Positions 27,851 through 47,066 of a stretch of DNA of 64,000 bases are shown here, piece by piece. The notes beneath the pieces are model-generated. The model was not told the DNA's origin. It was given only the letters and a program-made list of their open reading frames with translations, and did not search any database. A program made the translations under genes and the position numbers. Each line of letters opens with the position of its first letter. The first letter of the stretch is position 1. Origin of the DNA: Gloeobacterales cyanobacterium (GTDB taxonomy: Bacteria; Cyanobacteriota; Cyanobacteriia; Gloeobacterales; PMM-0068); contig JBBRSB010000006.1 of assembly GCA_038245785.1 (NCBI GenBank), positions 91,938 through 155,937 on the forward strand. Direction: 5' to 3'.

Positions 27851-28231
27851 ATGACAAGCACACCTGGCGTTCAGATCACTATCGACTGTAGAAATCCTGA
27901 TTTAGATGATGAAGAGCTGGAAAAGTTAACCCAAAGCCTTCGGGATGGAATGCTTGACTTAGACGAAGTAACGGACGTTAAGCGCGTGCTTGATCCCAAT
28001 CCACCCAAAGGGAATAAAGCACTGGGTGCTGTTTTAATTGGCCTGTTAACAACCGAGGTAAATATAAACAGTATTAAGGTGCTGTTTGGATTTCTGGCCG
28101 ACCGCTTGGGGAACAAACCGATTTCCATGGAAGTAGAAGCCAACGGCAAGAAACTCAAAGTGACAGCCAACAGTCGGCAAGAGTTGTTAGCGGCAGTTCA
28201 GACTGCCCAGCAATTTGTAGCATCCATCTAG
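27851..28231 (+). CDS. EACC1-like (effector-associated constant component) small protein
   Basis: DDEELEKLTQSLRDGMLDL...PPKGNKA, hydrophobic hairpin, ISMEVEANGKKLKV; directly upstream of a caspase. Confidence 0.7.
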   Translation: MTSTPGVQITIDCRNPDLDDEELEKLTQSLRDGMLDLDEVTDVKRVLDPNPPKGNKALGAVLIGLLTTEVNINSIKVLFGFLADRLGNKPISMEVEANGKKLKVTANSRQELLAAVQTAQQFVASI

Positions 28232-28241
28232 GAGTTCACAA

Positions 28242-31118
28242 ATGGCAAAGATGGCCTTGCTGATTGGCGTCAGTGAGTATGAGCTTGGACTAAATCCTTT
28301 ACCTGCAGCAGTTAAGGATCTAGATGCCCTGCAAGAAGTGTTAATTCATCCCAATATTGGTGAATTTGCAGCATCAGATGTAACTTTGCTCAAGAATCCT
28401 GATCGCCAGGTTATGGAAGAGGCAATTTATACCCTGTTCGCGGGTCGCCAGAAAGATGATCTGTTGCTTTTTTTCTTCTCAGGGCATGGTATCAAGGACG
28501 ATAATGGGACCCTTTACCTGGCAACGCGCGGTACGCGCAAAGCACCTCAAGGAGAGCTCATTATTCCCACAGCAGTCTCTGCCAATTTTGTCCACGACAG
28601 AATGGATTGCAGTCGCTCAAAGCGGCAGATTGTGATTTTAGATAGTTGTTTTAGTGGTGCTTTCGCAGAAGGAATGTCTGCCAAGAACGACGGCAACGTT
28701 GATATTCGCAATCAGCTAGGGGGTGAAGGAAGAGCGGTACTGACATCCTCCAGTTCAACGCAATACTCTTTTGAACAGGAAGGAGAAGAGTTATCGCTTT
28801 ATTCCCGTTTCTTGATTGAGGGGATCAAAACGGGAGAAGCCGATCTCGATGGAGATGAAGTTGTTTCCATCGACGAACTGCACGAATACGCCAGCAGAAA
28901 AGTACGTGAAGTGAAGCCAGAACTGAATCCAGAAATTTATGCTTTTCGAGAGGGCTTCAAAATCCGCCTAACGAAAGTTCCACCGGGTGATCCGCTCAAA
29001 AAGTATCGCAAAGAGGTTGCCCGGTTCATTAATCGGGGCGAAATCTCTTTTGTAGGACGTAAAACGCTGGATGTTTTTAGGACTCGTTTGGGACTCAAAG
29101 CAGCGACAGCAGAAGGGATTGAGGATGAGGTTCTAGAACCTTACCGCAATGATTTTCGTAACAAGCTTCAGCAGTATGAGCAAGTTTTTAGAGCGTTAAG
29201 CGAGCGTGAAGAGCCCATTGACGAAAGGGATCACGTCGATCTGCAAAACCTGCAACAGATCTTAGGACTGAGGAATGAAGATACCGTACCCATTGAGGTG
29301 CGTGTAGTAGCTGCTCTGAAGGCTCAAAAACAAAATCTACAAGCCTACGAACAAGCCTTGGGAGACGCACTGCGGCAAACCTATCCCTTGAGCAAAATGC
29401 AACAGCGCAAGTTTCAGCAGATGCAGCAACAGATGGAATTGACCGATGCAGAGATAAATACCATCACCGTTCGTGTCACAGCAGAGGTAGAAACGTATCG
29501 ACAGCACGCGCAGCAGTATGAGCAGCAGTTTGCTAGCGCAGTACAGCAGCAGTACCCCTTGAGCGATCAGCAACAGATAGAGCTTCAGTTGTATAAGCAA
29601 AGCCTGAGCTTATCGGAAGTGGATATTGCGCCTATTGAGGCCAAGATCACATCGGAGATTAAAACCTATCACCAGAAAGTCCGAAATTACAAAGACGCCT
29701 TTGTTCAAGCGACCCAAAACAAACATCACCCCAATGAGGTGATTCATCAGCAATTGCAGCAAACCTGGCAAACCCTGGGCTTGGTTAAAACTGATGTCCA
29801 AAGCGTTGAAGCTCCTATCCTCGCTCAAATTGAAAAGCACCAGTCAAACATGCATCAGTATGAGCAGGAGTTTACAGAGGCTACACAACAGCAATACCCA
29901 TTACTAGAAGAAAAGCGACTGAGCCTGCAGCAGCGCCAGCAGCAATTAGATCTGAGCAATGAGGATATTGAACCGCTCCAAACCAGAATTACGGCGGATC
30001 TTGAGGAACATCTGCAAAAACTTAAGCAGTACAAGCAGGTCCTGAGCGCAGCTATCCAGTTTGAATATCCCTTTAATGAACCTACCCGCGAGGAAATTAG
30101 ACGCTTCCAACAGGTATTAGAACTGAGTAATAAGGATGCTGCACGGATCGAAGAGCAAATTTTAGCCAATCAAGGGCTTAAGCCTCCCGTCGACAAGCCA
30201 ATGGCTGAACCACCATTCAAGTCTGAATTTGCAGGCTTGTTTCCTCAAAGTGAGCTGACAGCAGTAGACAGCTTTTTAGCACCACCACCTGAACAGTTTT
30301 TAACTCCAGAGCCACTACCGCTTGCAGTATCTAAGGGACAGCTAGGACAGATGCAAATGCAATCAGAGCAAGTCATTGCAGCACCTAAAGAACAACTTAG
30401 AGATGCAATGAGAAAACCCTTGTTAGGGCCAATATCTAAATCGAGGTCTAAATATCACTCGGTGCCAACCATGATATTTACAGGAGCAGGTATCGCGATC
30501 TTCGCAATGGTGGGCACTGCCTTTTGGCTAAGAAACAGGCCTGCTCAGCCCTCAATCCTGACTATTTCTAGTAATGCTCAGGTAACCCTTGCTAACGCAC
30601 AGCAACAAGCGAAGGAGGGCAAATTGAAGCAAGCAATTACAACAGCATCTAAAGTTCCAGAGAATGATCCTGCCATTAAAGAAGCAAAAAAGTTGGTTGA
30701 TCAAAGTTCAGAAATTCTAATTCAACAAGCAACTAAGCAATATGAGACAGGAAAATTGAACAAGGCCATTGATATCGCTAAGTCAATTCCTGCAGATAGC
30801 ATTACAGGAAAAAAGGCACAGCAGTTAATTACTCAATGGAAGAAAAAACGGGCGTCTAATATTGTTAGAAGGAGGAAAGAACAGAAAGCAAAGGAGCAAA
30901 AAGAATGGCAAGAGGAAAACCCTCCGGAGCATGAATCAACTATTCCTAGCTATCATACGAGATATTCACCGAAGAGGTCACAACAAAGACAAAATTTACC
31001 ATCACAAACAGAGCAGGTTCAACCACCAAGACAACAAGGAAACCCACCTAAAAGCTCAAGTTCTTGCAGCACACCACAACTCTCGTTAGAGGAGGCTGTT
31101 CGTCTGGGATGTTCATAA
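28242..31118 (+). CDS. Caspase-like (peptidase C14) protein with ~57-aa helical repeats, a TM helix and an extracytoplasmic helical domain
   Basis: ALLIGVSEY, FSGHG and LDSCFSG catalytic dyad, repeated YEQ..QQYPL..L..Q..L.L..D units, TM MIFTGAGIAIFAMVGTAFWL. Confidence 0.85.
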   Translation: MAKMALLIGVSEYELGLNPLPAAVKDLDALQEVLIHPNIGEFAASDVTLLKNPDRQVMEEAIYTLFAGRQKDDLLLFFFSGHGIKDDNGTLYLATRGTRKAPQGELIIPTAVSANFVHDRMDCSRSKRQIVILDSCFSGAFAEGMSAKNDGNVDIRNQLGGEGRAVLTSSSSTQYSFEQEGEELSLYSRFLIEGIKTGEADLDGDEVVSIDELHEYASRKVREVKPELNPEIYAFREGFKIRLTKVPPGDPLKKYRKEVARFINRGEISFVGRKTLDVFRTRLGLKAATAEGIEDEVLEPYRNDFRNKLQQYEQVFRALSEREEPIDERDHVDLQNLQQILGLRNEDTVPIEVRVVAALKAQKQNLQAYEQALGDALRQTYPLSKMQQRKFQQMQQQMELTDAEINTITVRVTAEVETYRQHAQQYEQQFASAVQQQYPLSDQQQIELQLYKQSLSLSEVDIAPIEAKITSEIKTYHQKVRNYKDAFVQATQNKHHPNEVIHQQLQQTWQTLGLVKTDVQSVEAPILAQIEKHQSNMHQYEQEFTEATQQQYPLLEEKRLSLQQRQQQLDLSNEDIEPLQTRITADLEEHLQKLKQYKQVLSAAIQFEYPFNEPTREEIRRFQQVLELSNKDAARIEEQILANQGLKPPVDKPMAEPPFKSEFAGLFPQSELTAVDSFLAPPPEQFLTPEPLPLAVSKGQLGQMQMQSEQVIAAPKEQLRDAMRKPLLGPISKSRSKYHSVPTMIFTGAGIAIFAMVGTAFWLRNRPAQPSILTISSNAQVTLANAQQQAKEGKLKQAITTASKVPENDPAIKEAKKLVDQSSEILIQQATKQYETGKLNKAIDIAKSIPADSITGKKAQQLITQWKKKRASNIVRRRKEQKAKEQKEWQEENPPEHESTIPSYHTRYSPKRSQQRQNLPSQTEQVQPPRQQGNPPKSSSSCSTPQLSLEEAVRLGCS

Positions 31119-34827: not shown

Positions 34828-36108
34828 ATGAAGGTTTTGGTGGTGGGCAATGGTGGCAGAGAACACACCTTGGTTTGGAAACTAGCGCAATCTGCAGACG
34901 TGGAGCGGGTATTCTGTGCGCCAGGCAATGCAGGTACAGCCCTAGAACCTAAAAGCCAGAATGTTGCGCTAGAGGTCCTTGACTTCGCAGGACTCGCTGA
35001 ATTTGCCCAAAAAGAAGGGATTGACTTGACCGTGATTGGTCCGGAGGTGCCGCTGTGTAGGGGCATTGTGGACTACTTTCAAGAGCGCGGACTCCTCGCT
35101 TTTGGCCCTAACCAAGCAGGAGCCCAGATTGAAGGTTCTAAATCTTGGGCTAAAGAATTCATGGTCCAAGCAGGAATCCCTACGGCTAAGTCCCGAACCT
35201 TTACAGACTTTGAATCCGCAAAAAGCTACATCCAACTTCGTTTAACCCAGGTGCGCAAACTGGTGATCAAAGCGGATGGGCTCGCAGCCGGGAAGGGCGT
35301 AGTAATTGTGAAAGACCTTGCTGAAGCCTTGAGTGCTCTGGAGTCTATGTTCCAGGGCTTATTTGGCAGTGCGGGATCTGTCGTCGTCATTGAAGAATTC
35401 CTAGAAGGTCAAGAAGCTTCTGTTCTGGCCCTTTGTGATGGAAAAACCATTGTTCCTCTACTAGCAGCCCAAGACCACAAAACTATTGGCGAAGGCGACC
35501 AGGGACCGAACACAGGGGGCATGGGAGCGTATTGCCCTGCTCCTGTGGTCACAGCGAAAACGCTTGCCTTTACGCAAGAAGAAGTTCTAAACCGGGCTTT
35601 GGCAGAATTCCAACGTCGAGGAATCGATTACCGAGGCATTCTCTACGCAGGTCTTATGGTTCATCCAGATGAAACTGTCGCTGTTGTGGAGTTCAACTGC
35701 CGTTTTGGCGACCCAGAAACACAGGTAGTGCTTCCCTTATTAGCGAATCCGTTGGAACAAGTCTTAATCGCTACGGCTAAGGGGCAACTTCAGTCCGTTC
35801 CGTTGCAATGGCATCCAGATTCTGCCGTTTGCGTGGTTATAGCCGCAGGAGGTTATCCCGGACCCTACTGCCAGGGCAAAGAAATTACAGGTTTAGCCGC
35901 TCAAGTTGCAGAAACGGTAGTTTTCCATGCGGGAACAGAAGAACGAGATGAGCGCATTCTTACGAAAGGAGGACGAGTTCTAGGCGTGACCGCCACCGCT
36001 CCGACCCTAAAGGAAGCCGTAGACCGTGCCTACCAGCGTTGTAGTTTTATCCAATTTGAGGAGGCCTACTACCGAAAAGATATTGCTAACCGAGTGCTGA
36101 GAACTTGA
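34828..36108 (+). CDS. purD: Phosphoribosylamine--glycine ligase
   Basis: GNGGREH, KADGLAAGKGV, GPNTGGMGAY, EFNCRFGDPETQ. Confidence 0.97.
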   Translation: MKVLVVGNGGREHTLVWKLAQSADVERVFCAPGNAGTALEPKSQNVALEVLDFAGLAEFAQKEGIDLTVIGPEVPLCRGIVDYFQERGLLAFGPNQAGAQIEGSKSWAKEFMVQAGIPTAKSRTFTDFESAKSYIQLRLTQVRKLVIKADGLAAGKGVVIVKDLAEALSALESMFQGLFGSAGSVVVIEEFLEGQEASVLALCDGKTIVPLLAAQDHKTIGEGDQGPNTGGMGAYCPAPVVTAKTLAFTQEEVLNRALAEFQRRGIDYRGILYAGLMVHPDETVAVVEFNCRFGDPETQVVLPLLANPLEQVLIATAKGQLQSVPLQWHPDSAVCVVIAAGGYPGPYCQGKEITGLAAQVAETVVFHAGTEERDERILTKGGRVLGVTATAPTLKEAVDRAYQRCSFIQFEEAYYRKDIANRVLRT

Positions 36109-36129: not shown

Positions 36130-36443
36130 ATACCCACACAAAATACAGCGCCCCAGCCTTTAGAGCTAAGGCACACCATTCAGTTATGGGTAGCGTGGTT
36201 GGAGGCCTAGACTGAGCTAAGGACATCCCTGTATATCACTTGTCTGGCGTACATAACCAAGGTTGAGGCGACTGTATACTCGGATTTTTTATGGAAGTGA
36301 ATACCCCATAGAGTAGTTAGTCAATGTGGATGAGAATTAAAACTTGCTCTTACGAAGTTTTGGCGGGACGAACAGTTGGAAAGAAGTAATCTTTTCCCGT
36401 CTGCTTCTTCGTTTGAGCCCCTGAACTTAGTGTGTAAGTTGAT
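36130..36443 (-). ncRNA. Putative structured ncRNA, copy A (~310 nt)
   Basis: No long ORF; paralog of copy B with covarying helices; minus-strand TTGTTT-N16-TATAGT promoter at 36477-36450. Confidence 0.6.
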
Positions 36444-36574
36444 GGACTAACTATACTCTTTTCTCACATCTAAACAAGTACTTGAAAGAATCCTTAACAC
36501 TTAGCTTACTATCGCAATACTTGCTCTTATTTGTCGATTTCTTGCTACTACTTGCACAAAGAACTCTTAGGGAT

Positions 36575-36886
36575 ATACCCACACAAAATACAGCGCCCCA
36601 GCCCTTAGAACTGAGGCACACCATTAAATAAATAGATCACGGTTGGAGCTTAGACAATGCTAGAAGCATCCCTGTGTAACACTTTTATGGCGTATCAGAC
36701 CGAGGTCGGGGCGACTGTAATTTTTGGAGCTTTTACGAACAATGTGCAACCCTTTAGAATTAACTGAGGTGGATGCAAACAGAGAGTCGTTCTAACGAAG
36801 CTTTGGCGGGGCGAACAGTTAACAAGGAAGTTATCTTTATCCCGTCTATTTCTTCGCTTTGAACCGTTTAACCAATGAAGGTTGAT
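36575..36886 (-). ncRNA. Putative structured ncRNA, copy B (~310 nt)
   Basis: Paralog of copy A at +445 offset; minus-strand TTGCAA-N16-TATATT promoter at 36920-36893. Confidence 0.6.
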
Positions 36887-37089
36887 AAATTAAATATAGC
36901 CTCTTTCAAAACTCTTGCAAGCACTTAGAAAAATCCTTAACATTTGGTTAAATTATCGCAATATTTTCCTCAGGAAGCTGGGAGTGCTGGAACGGGGATC
37001 AGCAGGTCATACAAGTCATATGGATCAGGCCATAGGCCGATGTTGTATCCTCTTTCTGTAGTACTCAAGCAAGACCTAGGCTTCTTTTT

Positions 37090-38799
37090 ATGAACAGACG
37101 GATTAGAAAATCCAACAGAACTGGTCAAAATATGCCTCGTCGGAGGTCCAAGGGATCCAGGTTCAAGCTGTGGTCCGCAGCCATGGCAGCAGCGTTTATC
37201 GCTGGAGGAATCCTCTGCTATATCCAGTTCTCTCAGATGCCTACGTCCGCAGCACCAGCAGCAGGCACGGCCCAAGAGGCCACCACTACCGAGACCAAGG
37301 CTCCCGCACCCAGCTCTTTTGTAGAGATGACCCCAGAATCCCGCAAGTTCAGGGTGCCTGTGATCATGTATCACGATGTCAAAAAGAAGAAAGATGTCTC
37401 CTACGATGTGCCCCCGAGGAAATTCCGGGCGCAGATGGAGTCTATTAAAGAAGCAGGCTTTACCCCGATCACCATTGACCAGCTCCATGCCCATCTCACC
37501 GAAAACAAACCGCTACCCCAAAAACCAATTCTGCTCACCTTTGATGATGGTTATCTTGGGAATTATGCCGAGGCTTATCCGATCCTCAAAGAGTTCAACT
37601 ATCCAGCAGTATTCTTCATCGTCCCTGCTTATGTAGGCGTGAAAACGAGCAAAGACCACGTCACCTGGGACCAGCTCAAAAAAGTGGTGAAAGAAGGATT
37701 GGTGACGGTAGCTGCCCATACGATGAGTCATCCGGTAGACCTCACGAAGTTGGATGATGCCAAGCTCCACCGAGAACTGTTTGAGTCCAAAGCGATCCTC
37801 GAAAAAACGCTGGGGGTTCCGATGAATTACCTGGCCTATCCCACGGGTAATCGGGATGAACGAGTGACCGCGCTTGCAAAAGAAGCAGGGTATCAGATGG
37901 CCTTCACGATGGATGAAGGCTACGCGGGTGAATCTGCTGATATCTTGCAGCTCAATCGTTTTGGACAATCTAATCTAAAGCTTGCGCTTACAAAAGGAAC
38001 GGGTGAACAGGATACGGACTTGTCTATTTCTCGTCCTCCTGTCAATTTTGAAGCCAAGCTCTCTTATCTCTCCGTAACCGTGGACAAAGTAGAGCTTTCC
38101 ATGGCTGTGGGAGGCCGTCCGGTCACGTTTCATGGAGATGGACGCAATAGCTTAGAAGACTATTTAGCCCAAAATCCTGGGACACAGGCTGCCGTGAACG
38201 GTGGATTTTTCCCTTTAAGAACCCGTGAACCGGCAAAGATGATTGGTCCGATTCTGAGTACCAATATCACCACTTTTGAGCCAATTGTCCTTGCAGAATC
38301 CGGAGGCTTGGCGGGTCGTCCTTTGGTGATCATTAGTCCCAAGGCTTTTGTCGTGGCTCCCTTCAATAGGGGCTATCTCAATACGCTGCAGGGCATCCAA
38401 TCCCTAGTTCCCGACGCAACCGATGTATTTCTGGGTGGAGCTTGGCTGGTTCGGGATGGACAAGGTCAGACCAAAGAGCAAATGGATAAAGTGATTGACT
38501 CTTGGATGCAGACCCGCCATCGCTCCTATATGGGGATGATGGGAGACGGTCGGTTTGTGGCGGGGATTACCCAGAATCGGGTCGATGCTGTAGATTTGGC
38601 CCAAGCCTTGGTGAAAGCAGGCGTCCAAGATGCCGTACTTCTTGATTCTGGAGCTTCCACTTCGCTGGTTTATCGGGGGCAACGCCTAACAGCCTATGAA
38701 CCCCGACCCGTGCCCCATGCTATTTTGATCCAAACCAAAGAGCCTGTAAGCAACGTCTTGGATAATCCTGCGTTGCCCATAGCGAAAGGGCGTCCTTAG
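37090..38799 (+). CDS. Polysaccharide deacetylase (CE4) fused to a phosphodiester glycosidase (NAGPA-like) domain
   Basis: PVIMYHDV, LTFDDGY, AHTMSH, AYPTG; C-terminal NGGFF and LLDSGASTSL. Confidence 0.85.
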   Translation: MNRRIRKSNRTGQNMPRRRSKGSRFKLWSAAMAAAFIAGGILCYIQFSQMPTSAAPAAGTAQEATTTETKAPAPSSFVEMTPESRKFRVPVIMYHDVKKKKDVSYDVPPRKFRAQMESIKEAGFTPITIDQLHAHLTENKPLPQKPILLTFDDGYLGNYAEAYPILKEFNYPAVFFIVPAYVGVKTSKDHVTWDQLKKVVKEGLVTVAAHTMSHPVDLTKLDDAKLHRELFESKAILEKTLGVPMNYLAYPTGNRDERVTALAKEAGYQMAFTMDEGYAGESADILQLNRFGQSNLKLALTKGTGEQDTDLSISRPPVNFEAKLSYLSVTVDKVELSMAVGGRPVTFHGDGRNSLEDYLAQNPGTQAAVNGGFFPLRTREPAKMIGPILSTNITTFEPIVLAESGGLAGRPLVIISPKAFVVAPFNRGYLNTLQGIQSLVPDATDVFLGGAWLVRDGQGQTKEQMDKVIDSWMQTRHRSYMGMMGDGRFVAGITQNRVDAVDLAQALVKAGVQDAVLLDSGASTSLVYRGQRLTAYEPRPVPHAILIQTKEPVSNVLDNPALPIAKGRP

Positions 38800-38866: not shown

Positions 38867-40144
38867 ATGGTAGGTCCTTTGACTAAGCGTACGCTGCAAC
38901 TTTCTGGCCTTTGGCTCGCCTCTGCCTTGTTGATAACCAGTTGTTCCAACAACTCCTTGCTAGCCCAGGGAGGGTTAGGGAATGTCGCCCAACAGGTTTG
39001 GGAAATCGTCAATAAAGACTACGTGGATGGAACCTTCAACAATCAAGACTGGAAGGCTGTACGGGACCGCTTCGATAAACCGACAAAAGATACCAAGCAG
39101 TCCTATGAGAACGTTCGCAAGATGCTAGAAACCCTGGGAGACCCTTACACCCGTTTTCTAGATCCAGAACAATACAAAGCCTTGCAAACTACTACCACTG
39201 GTGAGCTGTCTGGGGTAGGAATCATTGTTGGCCTCGACCCAGACACCAAAAGAGTTGTGGTCATCTCTCCTGTGGAGGGGACACCAGCGGCACGGGCGGG
39301 GATTAAAGCAAGAGACTACATTGTTCAAGTAGATGATAAGACTACCAAGAATGTGACCTTAGAGGAAGTCACAAAACTGATCCAGGGACGCAAAGGAACC
39401 AAGGTGACTATGGTCCTAGAGCGGGAGAAAAAAGAATTTACCGTTACCCTACAGCGTGACCGGATAGAGATTGATCCGGTAATTGCTGAGGTAAAGAAAG
39501 ATAAGGGTTTCAAAGTAGGCTATGCCCGACTTTCCACCTTCAATGCCAATGCTGTAGACAAGATGAGCAAAGCGATTCAGGAAGAAAACGATAAGGGCGT
39601 AGATGGCTACATCATGGATCTGCGGGCCAATCCAGGAGGACTTTTTACCGCAGGACTCGATATTGCGCGCCTATGGTTAGACAAAGACCAAATGATTATC
39701 AAGACCGTTTATCGGGAAGGGAAACAGGACATCATTCGAGCAGACCGTCCTTCTCTCACCAATAAGCCCTTAGTCGTTTTGGTCGATGGAGGGACAGCCA
39801 GTTCCAGTGAAATTCTCGCCGGGGCCTTACAGGATAATAAACGGGCTATTCTCGTAGGGGCCAAAACCTTCGGTAAGGGGCTGATTCAACAGGTGTACAC
39901 CTTGAATACTTCAGAAGAGGGAGGGATAGGAGTAGCCGTTTCGATTGCCAAATACCAGACTCCTTCTGGAGCAGATATTCATAAAAAAGGGATCAAGCCT
40001 GATATCGCCGTGGAACTTTCTAAAGAGTTTACGGCTGACCAGATTGCTACCAGCAAAGATAACCAATACGCCAAAGCGCTAGAAGTATTGGAAGGTAAAA
40101 TTGCGGCTCAGAGAACAAGTCAGCAGGTGGTGGTAGGAAGTTAA
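38867..40144 (+). CDS. ctpA: Carboxyl-terminal processing protease (S41A), paralog 1
   Basis: LGDPYTRFL, PDZ domain, DLRANPGG, TASSSEILAGAL, KTFGKG; lipobox-like ITSC. Confidence 0.88.
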   Translation: MVGPLTKRTLQLSGLWLASALLITSCSNNSLLAQGGLGNVAQQVWEIVNKDYVDGTFNNQDWKAVRDRFDKPTKDTKQSYENVRKMLETLGDPYTRFLDPEQYKALQTTTTGELSGVGIIVGLDPDTKRVVVISPVEGTPAARAGIKARDYIVQVDDKTTKNVTLEEVTKLIQGRKGTKVTMVLEREKKEFTVTLQRDRIEIDPVIAEVKKDKGFKVGYARLSTFNANAVDKMSKAIQEENDKGVDGYIMDLRANPGGLFTAGLDIARLWLDKDQMIIKTVYREGKQDIIRADRPSLTNKPLVVLVDGGTASSSEILAGALQDNKRAILVGAKTFGKGLIQQVYTLNTSEEGGIGVAVSIAKYQTPSGADIHKKGIKPDIAVELSKEFTADQIATSKDNQYAKALEVLEGKIAAQRTSQQVVVGS

Positions 40145-41406
40145 TGGCCATTCAGCGTATACAAAAGCTTTCTGGCCTATGGCTGGCCGCTGCCTTGCTC
40201 ATGACCGGTTGTTCTAACGATTCCCTACGGGCTCAGGGAAAAGCGGAGAATCTAACGCAACGGGTTTGGGAAATCGTTAACAAAGACTATGTGGACGGAA
40301 CGTTTAATAAGCAAGACTGGAAGGCCGTACGGAACCGCTTCGATAAACCGACGACAGATACCAAGCAGTCCTATGAAAACGTTCGCAAGATGCTAGAAAC
40401 TCTGGGAGACCCTTACACTCGTTTTCTAGACCCAGAGCAATACAAAGCGCTACAGACCAGCACGACGGGTGAACTCTCTGGGATAGGGGTAAAAATTGAA
40501 CTGGACCTGGATACGAAGAGAATCGTAGTTATTGCTCCCATCGACAAGACGCCAGCAGCACGGGCGGGGATCAAAGCGCGAGATTTCATTGTGCAGATAG
40601 ATGGCAAATCGACCAAGAATATGACCATAGAACAAGTAGCCAAGCGACTACAGGGCCGCAAGGGCAGTAAAGTGACCTTGGGCATAGAGCGGGACAAAAA
40701 AGAACTTACAGTAGCCCTACAGCGAGACCGGATAGAGATCGATCCGGTGGTAGCCTCTGTAAAGGAAGATAAGGGCCTCAAAGTAGGCTATGCTCGACTT
40801 TCCACCTTCAATGCCAACGCCGTAGACAAGATGCGCAAAGCGATTCAAGAAGAAAACGCGAAAGGCGTAGATGGCTACATTATGGATCTCCGGGCCAATC
40901 CAGGTGGACTGGTAACAGCAGGCATCGATATTGCTCGAATGTGGTTAGCTAAAGACCAAGTGATCATCAAAACCGTCTATCGCGGCGGAAAACAGGAAAT
41001 TGTTCAGGCAGACCGAACGCCTTTGACGAATAAACCGCTGGTTGTTTTGGTAGATGGGGGCACGGCCAGCGCTAGTGAAATTCTCTCCGGAGCCTTGCAG
41101 GATAATAAGCGCGCTGTTCTTGTCGGGACGAAAACTTTTGGAAAAGGCCTAATTCAAGAGTTCAAGACCTTAAACCAGGAAGAAGGAATAGGCGTAGTCA
41201 TTTCGATTGCTAAATACCAGACTCCTTCCGGAGCCGATATTCACAAAAAAGGGATCAAGCCCAATGTGGTCGTCGAACTTTCTAAAAAGTTTACGGCTGA
41301 CCAAATTGCCACGAGTAAAGATAGCCAATATGCCAAAGCTTTAGAAGTTTTAAAAGGCAAAATCGCTGCTCAGAAAACGGGCAAACAGATCGGGGTTGGG
41401 CGTTGA
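40144..41406 (+). CDS. ctpA: Carboxyl-terminal processing protease (S41A), paralog 2
   Basis: Same motifs (TASASEILSGAL); lipobox-like MTGC; close tandem duplicate. Confidence 0.88.
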   Translation: MAIQRIQKLSGLWLAAALLMTGCSNDSLRAQGKAENLTQRVWEIVNKDYVDGTFNKQDWKAVRNRFDKPTTDTKQSYENVRKMLETLGDPYTRFLDPEQYKALQTSTTGELSGIGVKIELDLDTKRIVVIAPIDKTPAARAGIKARDFIVQIDGKSTKNMTIEQVAKRLQGRKGSKVTLGIERDKKELTVALQRDRIEIDPVVASVKEDKGLKVGYARLSTFNANAVDKMRKAIQEENAKGVDGYIMDLRANPGGLVTAGIDIARMWLAKDQVIIKTVYRGGKQEIVQADRTPLTNKPLVVLVDGGTASASEILSGALQDNKRAVLVGTKTFGKGLIQEFKTLNQEEGIGVVISIAKYQTPSGADIHKKGIKPNVVVELSKKFTADQIATSKDSQYAKALEVLKGKIAAQKTGKQIGVGR

Positions 41407-41473: not shown

Positions 41474-41758
41474 ATGGCAACTTCTCCTAAGTCAGAACGT
41501 CTCAGCTTGCGGCTAGACCCGCTTACAAAGCAAAAAATTGAGCAAGCCTCATCCTTGGCGAACTGCTCTGTCAATAGTTTTATTCTGTCTAGCGTTTTGG
41601 ACAAGGCAGAACAGTTGATCCTTACTCATGAAGCAGTCGTGCTCAGTGACCGAGATCGGGATTTGTTTTTTGCGGCCATTCTGAATCCACCCGCGCTTAA
41701 TCCAGCCTTGAAAGAAGCCTTCGCCTTGCACCAAAAGTTAGCTGAGTCTGATGTCTAG
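41474..41758 (+). CDS. DUF1778 RHH antitoxin (TacA/AtaR-like)
   Basis: KSERLSLRL, LSDRDRDLFFAAILNPPALNPAL. Confidence 0.85.
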   Translation: MATSPKSERLSLRLDPLTKQKIEQASSLANCSVNSFILSSVLDKAEQLILTHEAVVLSDRDRDLFFAAILNPPALNPALKEAFALHQKLAESDV

Positions 41759-42254
41759 TCTGGAGACCCCCTTCCTCATCCAGCCACTTGGCAAAGAGCA
41801 CGATAAAAGTTGTTTCTCTTGTGGTGTTGAAGCTCTTGATCGTTATCTCAAACAACAGGCCAGCCAAGATGTCAAACGACGCTTAACACAGGTCTTTGTG
41901 GTCGTTCCTAGAGAGATGCCGCAGACCATAGCAGGCTTTTACACCCTAAGCGCAACATCCGTACAAGCAGTTTCCATGCCTGAGGAACTTGCTAGAAAAT
42001 TTCCACGCTATCCTCTACCAGCTGCCCTGATTGGCCGCCTCGCTGTTGCTGAGCATTTCCAAAGGCAAGGTCTAGGAAAAATTCTTCTAGCCGATGCATT
42101 GAAAAGAATCGTAGCCGCCAGTCAGAGTGTTGGCATGTTCGCAGCCATTGTCGATGCCAAAGATGAAAAAGCCAAGCAGTTCTACCTAAAATTTGGTTTT
42201 ACTTCCTTCCATGACCAACCCTTGCGGTTGTTCTTGCCCCTAGAGAGCGTTTAG
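41751..42254 (+). CDS. GNAT acetyltransferase toxin (TacT/AtaT-like)
   Basis: FSCGVEALDRYL, PAALIGRLAV, QRQGLG, VDAKDEKAKQFYLKFGF. Confidence 0.88.
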   Translation: MSSLETPFLIQPLGKEHDKSCFSCGVEALDRYLKQQASQDVKRRLTQVFVVVPREMPQTIAGFYTLSATSVQAVSMPEELARKFPRYPLPAALIGRLAVAEHFQRQGLGKILLADALKRIVAASQSVGMFAAIVDAKDEKAKQFYLKFGFTSFHDQPLRLFLPLESV

Positions 42255-46628: not shown

Positions 46629-47066
46629 ATGATTGCTATAAAGCTCCGCCCTTCAGGCCAGACGGTCAAAAGTTTTCAATTTCGCTCTACGCTTTATCTT
46701 CATCCAATTATTGACCTGCTTTTGGCCGAAGTAGTTCCTTTTTTACGTCCAGAACTGCGTTTGGGTCTACAAGAGGCTTTGGTAAATGCAGCCTTGCATG
46801 GCAACGGCTTAGACCCTAATAAGAAGATTGTGATCCAGTTTTTGATGACCTCCACCCATTATGTCTGGATTATCTGGGATGAGGGTACTGGCTTTTGTAC
46901 AGAACAAAAAGAGCAGCATGACCCGCTGGATGAAAGTTGCCTCGACTGTGAACGCGGTAGAGGACTGTACCTGATGAAGCAAATCTTCGATGAAGTGCAA
47001 TGGAACTCCCAAGGTAATCAACTGCACCTCAGACGGGGCTTAGACCGTTCTCCTATAATTCGGTAA
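46629..47066 (+). CDS. pmgA: PmgA-like anti-sigma regulatory factor (HATPase_c)
   Basis: FRSTLYL, ELRLGLQEALVNAALHGN, DEGTGF, GRGLYLMKQIFDEVQWN. Confidence 0.8.
   Translation: MIAIKLRPSGQTVKSFQFRSTLYLHPIIDLLLAEVVPFLRPELRLGLQEALVNAALHGNGLDPNKKIVIQFLMTSTHYVWIIWDEGTGFCTEQKEQHDPLDESCLDCERGRGLYLMKQIFDEVQWNSQGNQLHLRRGLDRSPIIR

Follow-up and report, generated by a model that had tools for sequence, protein, structure and literature searches.

6S RNA and mycobacterial Ms1 are RNA-polymerase-binding RNAs, which is the basis on which they are compared with the locus described here, and PrrF1/PrrF2 and OmrA/OmrB are tandem sibling sRNAs of ~90-120 nt that depend on Hfq and act by base-pairing through single-stranded seeds. 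The closest described system is PmgR1 (Ncr0700, DsiR1) of Synechocystis. In the parts of the literature drawn on here, PmgR1 is reported to be the most abundant sRNA of dark-grown Synechocystis and to be needed for photomixotrophic growth, and it dominates the sRNA pool in the dark, in stationary phase and upon heat (PMC6596454, PMC5386190). According to the same selection of sources, RNase E processes the transcript (PMC8682795, PMC10939160), glycogen control involves it together with the kinase PmgA (PMC12831587), and in strain 6803 it is joined to a downstream gene as a chimeric unit (PMC5386190). Its gradient peak, in fractions 8-9, lies close to that of RNase P RNA (fractions 9-10), and it sediments with large complexes (PMC12475003, section consulted); the part of PMC8682795 used here describes neither its targets nor its mechanism as known. 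A model made from the alignment of the original PmgR1 paper gave 34 matches in its search regions (PMC12873609, in the portion used). No PmgR1 from Gloeobacterales was found in the literature that we searched, the homologue lists of the original PmgR1 paper and of the PMC12873609 supplement lying outside its coverage.

Here we describe two RNA copies in a window of 64,000 nucleotides, the whole stretch of DNA analysed, from a Gloeobacterales cyanobacterium. Our best reading of the locus, to which we assign a probability of roughly 0.58, is that it encodes a trans-acting, protein-binding RNA of PmgR1 type. The pair occupies the intergenic space flanked by purD (34828-36108, +), with which copy A is convergent, and by a gene for a polysaccharide deacetylase (37090-38799, +). 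The copies are 71.4% identical across 402 nt (blastn, E 3e-41), offset by 445 (3' ends) or 443 (promoters), and no other significant blastn match was found in the 5.0-Mb genome. The picture of a diverged tandem duplicate, with 3 differing positions in the opening 51 nt of the plus strand and no long ORF, was thereby confirmed: among six copies and homologues compared, neither strand holds an ORF with a conserved start, frame and stop. Peptide coding was rejected in the individual cases as well, as neither a 34-codon ORF of copy A nor a 'MVCLSS' frame has a shared stop and a 15-codon TTG frame is confined to B-type copies, and a type I toxin-antitoxin system or small-protein mRNA failed the small-ORF conservation test.

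Several other features were observed near the pair or in the same genome. A tandem pair of genes for CtpA-family C-terminal proteases is found at 38867-41406 (+), followed at 41474-42254 (+) by a small antitoxin-like gene and a GNAT acetyltransferase gene, a probable type II toxin-antitoxin pair. At 27851-31118 (+) a 126-aa gene precedes a gene for a 958-aa protein with a long coiled region and an N-terminus that by eye is caspase-like. The start of a Fur/Zur-like gene (G000:C16:58157-58179) shares 21 of 23 nt with the 5' domain of copy A on the sense strand (E 0.15), probably by chance.

Table 1. Positions in the window of the features assigned to the two RNA copies.
Feature	Position	Strand	Basis or remark
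Copy B upstream motif, TTAAC-N5-GTTAAGGAT	36933-36951	-	duplicated with the RNA; present in every genus copy
Copy B sigma70-like promoter, -35 TTGCAA, -10 TATATT	36893-36920	-	promoter scan, 9/12 match
RNA copy B, ~310 nt	36578-36886	-	start predicted from the -10
Copy B 5' domain	36789-36865	-	consensus fold of 5' parts; genus-specific
Copy B PmgR1-type 3' domain	36588-36718	-	descriptor rank 1 in genome, alignment, covariation, terminator scan
Copy A upstream motif	36490-36508	-	duplicated counterpart of copy B motif
Copy A -10 element, TATAGT	36450-36455	-	sequence, aligned to promoters of orthologues
RNA copy A, ~310 nt	36133-36443	-	fold and alignment; ends predicted
Copy A 5' domain	36346-36419	-	fold of 5' parts
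Copy A PmgR1-type 3' domain	36143-36275	-	descriptor rank 2 in genome

The -10 element of copy B (36898-36893) is conserved in orthologues, and the promoter of copy A was not called by the promoter scan. The motif upstream of copy B, ~50-65 nt ahead of the predicted start, is likely to be a transcription-factor site. A genome-wide PWM scan gave no regulon for this motif, and its interpretation as a Pho-box-like or other regulon element was discarded as no set of upstream matches was obtained. On the minus strand both copies end as a GC-rich hairpin followed by U's, and for copy B the candidate 3' ends are a U-tract near 36585 and a GUGUGGG tail at 36578. We infer that each copy is a transcript of its own, ~310 nt in length and ending at the U-tract. 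In copy B, the 5' domain consists of GGUUC/GAAC and CGAAG/CUUCG helices around CGGG/CCCG. Its 3' domain starts from a closing helix, ACAG-CGCC/GGCG-CUGU, and continues with a core of CUGA/UCAG and ACGCC/GGUGU that surrounds a small internal loop, an asymmetric bubble, a GGA/UCC helix and an apical hairpin, while its 3' strand is alternatively able to form a terminator hairpin. The UGA/UCA core is slightly eroded in copy A.

The RNAs are placed on the minus strand because of their promoters, their terminator-like ends, one-sided changes of G-U type and their orientation relative to PmgR1. The G-U-tolerated changes had been put forward in favour of this strand by the original prediction, and one-sided changes of that type are indeed seen; folding energy was uninformative as a strand test (z -1.2 to -3.7 for the RNA strand, -1.1 to -3.8 for the other). 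Support was obtained for the predicted helices GCUC/GAGC versus GUUC/GAAC and CCU..AGG versus CUU..AAG, the 5' hairpin AACUUA/UAAGUU versus AACC/GGUU, and UACGCCA/UGGUGUG, which corresponds to the core of the PmgR1 family. Three further helices held up less well: ACGAA/UUCGU versus GCGAA/UUCGC is disrupted in one of five copies, AAC-cuug-GUU is disrupted in the congener copies and its strand is more likely to belong to the rod, paired with the 3' end, and CAUCC/GGAUG competes with the GGA/UCC helix that is kept family-wide. The general claim of a structured, multi-domain ncRNA pair on the minus strand under selection at the RNA level stands.

Parts of the stretch are held by 13 public runs, ten of which are RNA runs from five studies. 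Contigs were compared for four of the ten RNA runs, from four studies, and in all four they lie on at least one of the copies (36601-36863; 36637-36864 and 36174-36430; 36639-36865 and 36192-36377; 36588-36780 and 36209-36583), showing neither strand, ends nor level. Since these are contigs without a DNA control, they bear on presence in RNA libraries and not on level or strand, and presence of RNA copies of the pair in these libraries is weakly shown. Two observations were not counted as evidence, namely that contigs from three studies end at 36863-36865, and that in the four RNA runs the deacetylase side has no contig and purD short foreign pieces only. The 36209-36583 contig spans the 3' end of copy B across the promoter of copy A, reflecting either read-through or DNA.

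Formation of the terminator hairpin excludes that of the rod, and vice versa; in copy A the two are nearly equal in energy (-83.8 against -84.1 kcal/mol), and in copy B they differ by 7.8. Together with the contig bridging the two copies and the chimeric unit reported in part of PMC5386190 for PmgR1 in strain 6803, this could speak for a cis-acting switch (riboswitch, attenuator or actuaton). We nevertheless give such a switch hardly any credence, as copy A is followed by no sense gene at any genus locus and is equipped with a -10 and an upstream motif of its own; a decaying neutral duplication, to which we attach equally little weight, is at odds with the retention of both paralogues in three species with compensatory changes.

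Rfam gave no match in the window at the gathering threshold and just two chance snoRNA matches at E<=10. With the window and seven homologous loci, no gathering-level family was obtained, and loose E-values returned chance snoRNA or miRNA matches only. RNase P, tmRNA and SRP hallmarks had been noted as absent, in agreement with the lack of any Rfam or ARAGORN match at the locus. A role as substitute housekeeping RNA was rejected, 6S, RNase P, tmRNA and SRP RNAs all being encoded elsewhere in the genome (canonical 6S RNA at 60.3 bits; SRP as a weak match below cut-off at 33.5 bits), and so was identity with 6S RNA (RF00013), for which the locus has no gathering-score match. Separate from the canonical RNase P gene, a second weak match to the RNase P model, below cut-off with 46.8 bits, was observed at G000:C1:100151-100468 (-). 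The pair had been proposed to represent an undescribed family; it does not, because the 3' domain is homologous to PmgR1/Ncr0700, a relationship unflagged by Rfam and set out below.

Within Gloeobacterales, the RNA pair is kept in both congeners (G001 and G002) beside the same deacetylase gene. On the other flank the congeners carry metallophosphatase and tig genes in place of purD, and the position downstream of purD, part of the original description, is therefore incidental. The duplication appears to predate the split of the three sampled species of the genus. Building a covariance model and searching genomes with it had been suggested as a check, and this was done with a model of the 3' 140 nt trained on Gloeobacterales copies only (R1), which found homologues in the copies' own and a sister family: two copies in each of three genomes of the former, and a single copy in three of four genomes of the latter, one of these being in the training set. 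In seven genomes of a third family neither R1 nor the extended model R2 (see below) gave a match, and five pattern matches in three genomes of that family did not score with the models; this non-detection does not amount to absence, because the same search missed a locus in genome G022 that scores 41 bits with R2.

The sister-family copies have a different 5' part of ~100 nt and different neighbours (mnmA/catalase; DUF7482/unknown; aminotransferase/Tic20). The shared piece is the rod, i.e. the closing helix, CUGA/UCAG, ACGCC/GGUGU, the bubble, and the GGA/UCC helix with its hairpin. Double changes occur in 18 of 39 pairs of the model-fitted alignment, a fitted and hence optimistic figure. At all genus loci, and at L028, the RNA is convergent with the next gene. 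Scans with exact patterns, too strict to reach PmgR1, returned one locus in metagenome contigs, three loci in genome contigs, none in viral contigs and a match in one of 401 phylum genomes.

Some of these loci show peculiarities of their own. In one congener lineage a short repeated insertion is found behind both RNA copies (L019:1545-1610 and 2030-2100; L003:1880-1950), possibly a small mobile repeat that targets RNA 3' ends. In genome G003 the catalase gene is preceded, on the side of the RNA homologue, by a palindromic site that we take to be Fur/PerR-box-like (L004:1320-1345).

The connection to PmgR1 was examined in both directions. When 151 genomes of the class were searched with R1, the sole match outside the family was in G128, with an E-value of 0.004 per genome that is not significant over 151. 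Addition of this sequence to the R1 set yielded R2, which matched G067 (E 1e-7), G046 (E 9e-7) and G025 (E 0.04). All four loci share a promoter motif, GTAAACTTT, and 5' blocks missing from the window copies, and by eye these 5' blocks match the Ncr0700 sequences in the part of the PMC6596454 supplement used here. Locus L103 is, by eye, identical to the published ncr0700 sequence of strain 6803. Further PmgR1 members were picked via the promoter pattern and a 5' pattern regardless of the 3' domain, the 5' pattern being too loose for counting (283 of 300 genomes) and used to pick candidate loci only; some PmgR1-type genomes have 2-3 copies each.

On the loci L104, L135 and L134, chosen by the 5' pattern, R1 scored 30.5, 30.2 and 23.3 bits (E 1e-6 to 7e-5), with the matches sitting directly behind the PmgR1 5' motif. 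The three belong to one genus and thus represent one independent event, and three of the six PmgR1-type loci in the same set were unmatched. Among 18 further PmgR1-type loci, R1 hit precisely the 3' domain, in the right orientation, in ten (7.7-11.8 bits, none significant alone), hit one in part, and missed seven, L103 included. Eight control loci with 6S, RNase P, tmRNA or SRP RNAs gave short hairpins of at most 11.3 bits and one 155-nt match of 7.2 bits.

In the reverse direction, a block-plus-base-pair descriptor was trained on 19 PmgR1-family domains from outside Gloeobacterales; of 20 fetched regions, L098, L099 and L101 were too divergent, and L085 and L094, which have internal repeats, were omitted from training. 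In the genome the two top ranks went to copy B (62.7) and copy A (42.3), the latter 1.6 above the third match (40.7), with a maximum of 36.6 in the reversed genome; these ranks carry a bias, as the descriptor was designed with the window copies known (allowing a 0-2-nt bulge and a 5-7-bp helix). Congener copies scored 56.6-68.5 and L103 53.6, and the sister-family copies, owing to insertions, 18-24, under the null maximum. With nhmmer, using sequence only, the locus ranked first (E 0.95) or sixth when training sets included model-selected sequences, and was unranked in the genome with an independent training set. Plain, unfitted MAFFT placed four genus copies collinear with 17 PmgR1-family domains in an alignment of 21 sequences that is nearly gapless except in the apical hairpin. 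In this alignment 93.1% of the cells of 24 named pairs are paired, compared with 35-49% in slid controls and with none of 500 shuffles as high, and double changes are found in 16 of the 24 pairs. Copy B matches the consensus from outside Gloeobacterales at 27 of 39 conserved columns. The 5' ~165 nt have no detectable homology to PmgR1, and a PmgR1 5' HMM matched none of nine Gloeobacterales 5' parts.

As judged from features defined on the homologues collected in this analysis, the copies possess the closing helix, the UGA/UCA core with its adjoining 5-7-bp helix, the GGAG/CUCC helix and the fixed spacings of PmgR1. It is very probable that the 3' ~140 nt are structurally homologous to PmgR1. 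The alternative, a Gloeobacterales-specific ncRNA whose likeness to PmgR1 is a convergence of rod-ended RNAs, could draw on the different 5' half and promoter motif, the weak sequence-only scores and the low descriptor scores of the sister family. Reciprocal top ranks, the collinear alignment of all blocks with compensatory changes, and control RNA loci without a full-length R1 match above 7.2 bits make it improbable. Because the 5' and promoter features of PmgR1 were looked for and are absent, we treat the RNAs as a PmgR1 variant.

The collected homologues yielded some further observations. The paralogues L085 (G571:C34) and L094 (G072:C62) seem, by eye, to repeat a module of GGAGGU plus 3' domain head to tail. 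At L083 (G096:C144) and L097 (G020:C1), GTAAACTTT stands at the same spacing and is followed by protein-coding sequence, with no RNA, which hints at the regulon of a transcription factor. A PmgR1 homologue lies directly upstream of the same conserved gene (its protein begins with MAIIA) at L086, L087, L090, L092, L093, L104 and L135, a recurrent, actuaton-like arrangement. A PmgA-like gene for an RsbW-type kinase is located in the window at 46629-47066 (+), by panC/cmk, its product being 54% identical to a protein annotated as PmgA-like, and was found in all five RNA-bearing relatives tested. Its distance to the RNA is about 10 kb in the window, 7.6 kb in G002 (same contig) and 77 kb in G003, so that the proximity is not a conserved linkage.

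Conservation in the shared 3' domain is concentrated in its helices: a threshold of >=80% is reached by 27 of 48 columns that pair and by 3 of 96 that do not, and no conserved unpaired stretch exceeds 1 nt. The spacings between blocks in 19 homologues are 18-20, 24-26, 30-33 and 17-22 nt, i.e. they vary by 2-5 nt. Helical conservation, near-fixed spacings and the lack of a conserved unpaired seed suggest a shape read by a protein rather than an mRNA seed, and the change of neighbours between families together with the convergent orientation points to action in trans. A protein-binding role, already envisaged in the original prediction, is thus backed as probable, and given the homology we hold a protein-binding mode to be the likelier one by a fair measure.

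On this interpretation, the locus would comprise two free-standing, separately promoted ncRNA genes that are early-branching PmgR1 (Ncr0700) paralogues arisen by tandem duplication. Their functional core would be the 3' domain of fixed geometry, with closing rod, UGA/UCA core and internal loop, asymmetric bubble and GGAG/CUCC helix, and this core may bind a protein or protein complex in trans, as a scaffold or sponge. The lineage-specific 5' half might tune stability, processing or a second contact. If the analogy with Synechocystis PmgR1 holds, the likely setting would be the dark or stationary phase and the control of carbon storage.

A PmgR1-family sRNA that base-pairs, via its 5' half or via a fragment released by RNase E, is an unlikely alternative to protein binding. 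It would be in line with the RNase E processing of PmgR1 (PMC8682795, PMC10939160, in the parts used) and with the recurrence in 5' parts of Shine-Dalgarno-like GAGGU and UCCAC, which by eye are loosely present here, whereas the shared 3' domain has no conserved unpaired run, the 5' halves differ among three lineages, and no significant match exists elsewhere in the genome on either strand. In the 5' halves of the PmgR1 homologues L082-L103, (G)GAGGU is conserved with no obvious start codon after it, and the window copies show a looser UCCAC..RGGGU in their 5' parts.

A special case of the protein-binding model is that the RNA binds RNA polymerase as a promoter mimic in the manner of 6S RNA and mycobacterial Ms1. 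The long closing duplex, asymmetric bubble, apical helix and nearly fixed spacings would suit such a mimic, as would the dominance of PmgR1 in the sRNA pool in the dark, in stationary phase and upon heat (PMC6596454) and its sedimentation with large complexes (PMC12475003), both as given in the sections used. The genome, however, already has a canonical 6S RNA and the locus is without an Rfam 6S match, R1 made no full-domain match on five 6S loci, and the apical stem is just ~12 bp here, so that we regard polymerase binding as doubtful, more so than base-pairing. Equally speculative is the broader idea that the 3' domain is an ancient module predating the split between Gloeobacterales and thylakoid-bearing cyanobacteria, fitted with lineage-specific 5' halves and binding a core machine, e.g. 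RNA polymerase. If true, PmgR1 would be a second, cyanobacteria-specific global regulator of 6S/Ms1 type for darkness, and the tandem paralogues would be specialised for different partners or conditions.

The original prediction also considered a guide-type scaffold (omega-RNA, bridge-RNA or tracrRNA-like) with targets in the variable segments, on account of conserved blocks that alternate with variable stretches. This we consider very improbable, because the variable AU-rich segments follow the paralogue lineage and have no significant match elsewhere in the genome: they track orthology and drift as AU-rich linkers, and the proposed search for their targets gave no significant off-locus match by blastn and none in viral contigs with one pattern. 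Furthermore, none of the flanking ORFs examined encodes a nuclease or recombinase, and each genome has 1-2 copies only.

PmgR1 homologues as such were already known. The novelty is that the family extends to the earliest-branching order and has a replaced 5' half there, from which a minimal conserved core can be defined, and a PmgR1-type RNA in Gloeobacterales suggests that such RNAs predate thylakoids. As only the 3' domain is common to PmgR1 and this order, the window copies are natural deletion experiments. A domain that is shared alone and conserved as a helical shape names the segment and base pairs to mutate, and makes the search for a protein partner more promising than the prediction of mRNA targets.

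In comparison with described systems, the copies resemble 6S RNA (RF00013) and Ms1-type RNAs in their rod with an asymmetric bubble, and in the abundance of the PmgR1 family in stationary phase or darkness (PMC6596454, part used), but differ from 6S RNA in that the locus has no Rfam match and a separate canonical 6S gene is present in the genome. Like PrrF1/PrrF2 and OmrA/OmrB they are duplicated head to tail, with a promoter and a regulator site for each copy and with a possible read-through transcript, whereas a conserved single-stranded seed is not seen in their 3' domain. As compared with PmgR1, neither the GAAGC/GCUUC hairpin nor the GGCAGA/UCUGUC arm is present in the 5' half, the upstream motif is TTAAC-N5-GTTAAG instead of the PmgR1-type GTAAACTTT at fixed spacing (one PmgR1 genus has GTTAAC-N4-GTTAA, loosely like the window motif), the apical hairpin is shorter, the closing helix has a bulged base, the 3' strand doubles as a terminator hairpin, and the genes form a head-to-tail pair with two promoters. 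On the other hand, the copies share with PmgR1/Ncr0700 (DsiR1) of Synechocystis sp. PCC 6803 and 6714 a similar length of about 290-310 nt, a free-standing gene, the occurrence, also in other cyanobacteria, of several copies per genome, and a collinear 3' domain with the same four helices, the same spacings and compensatory changes.
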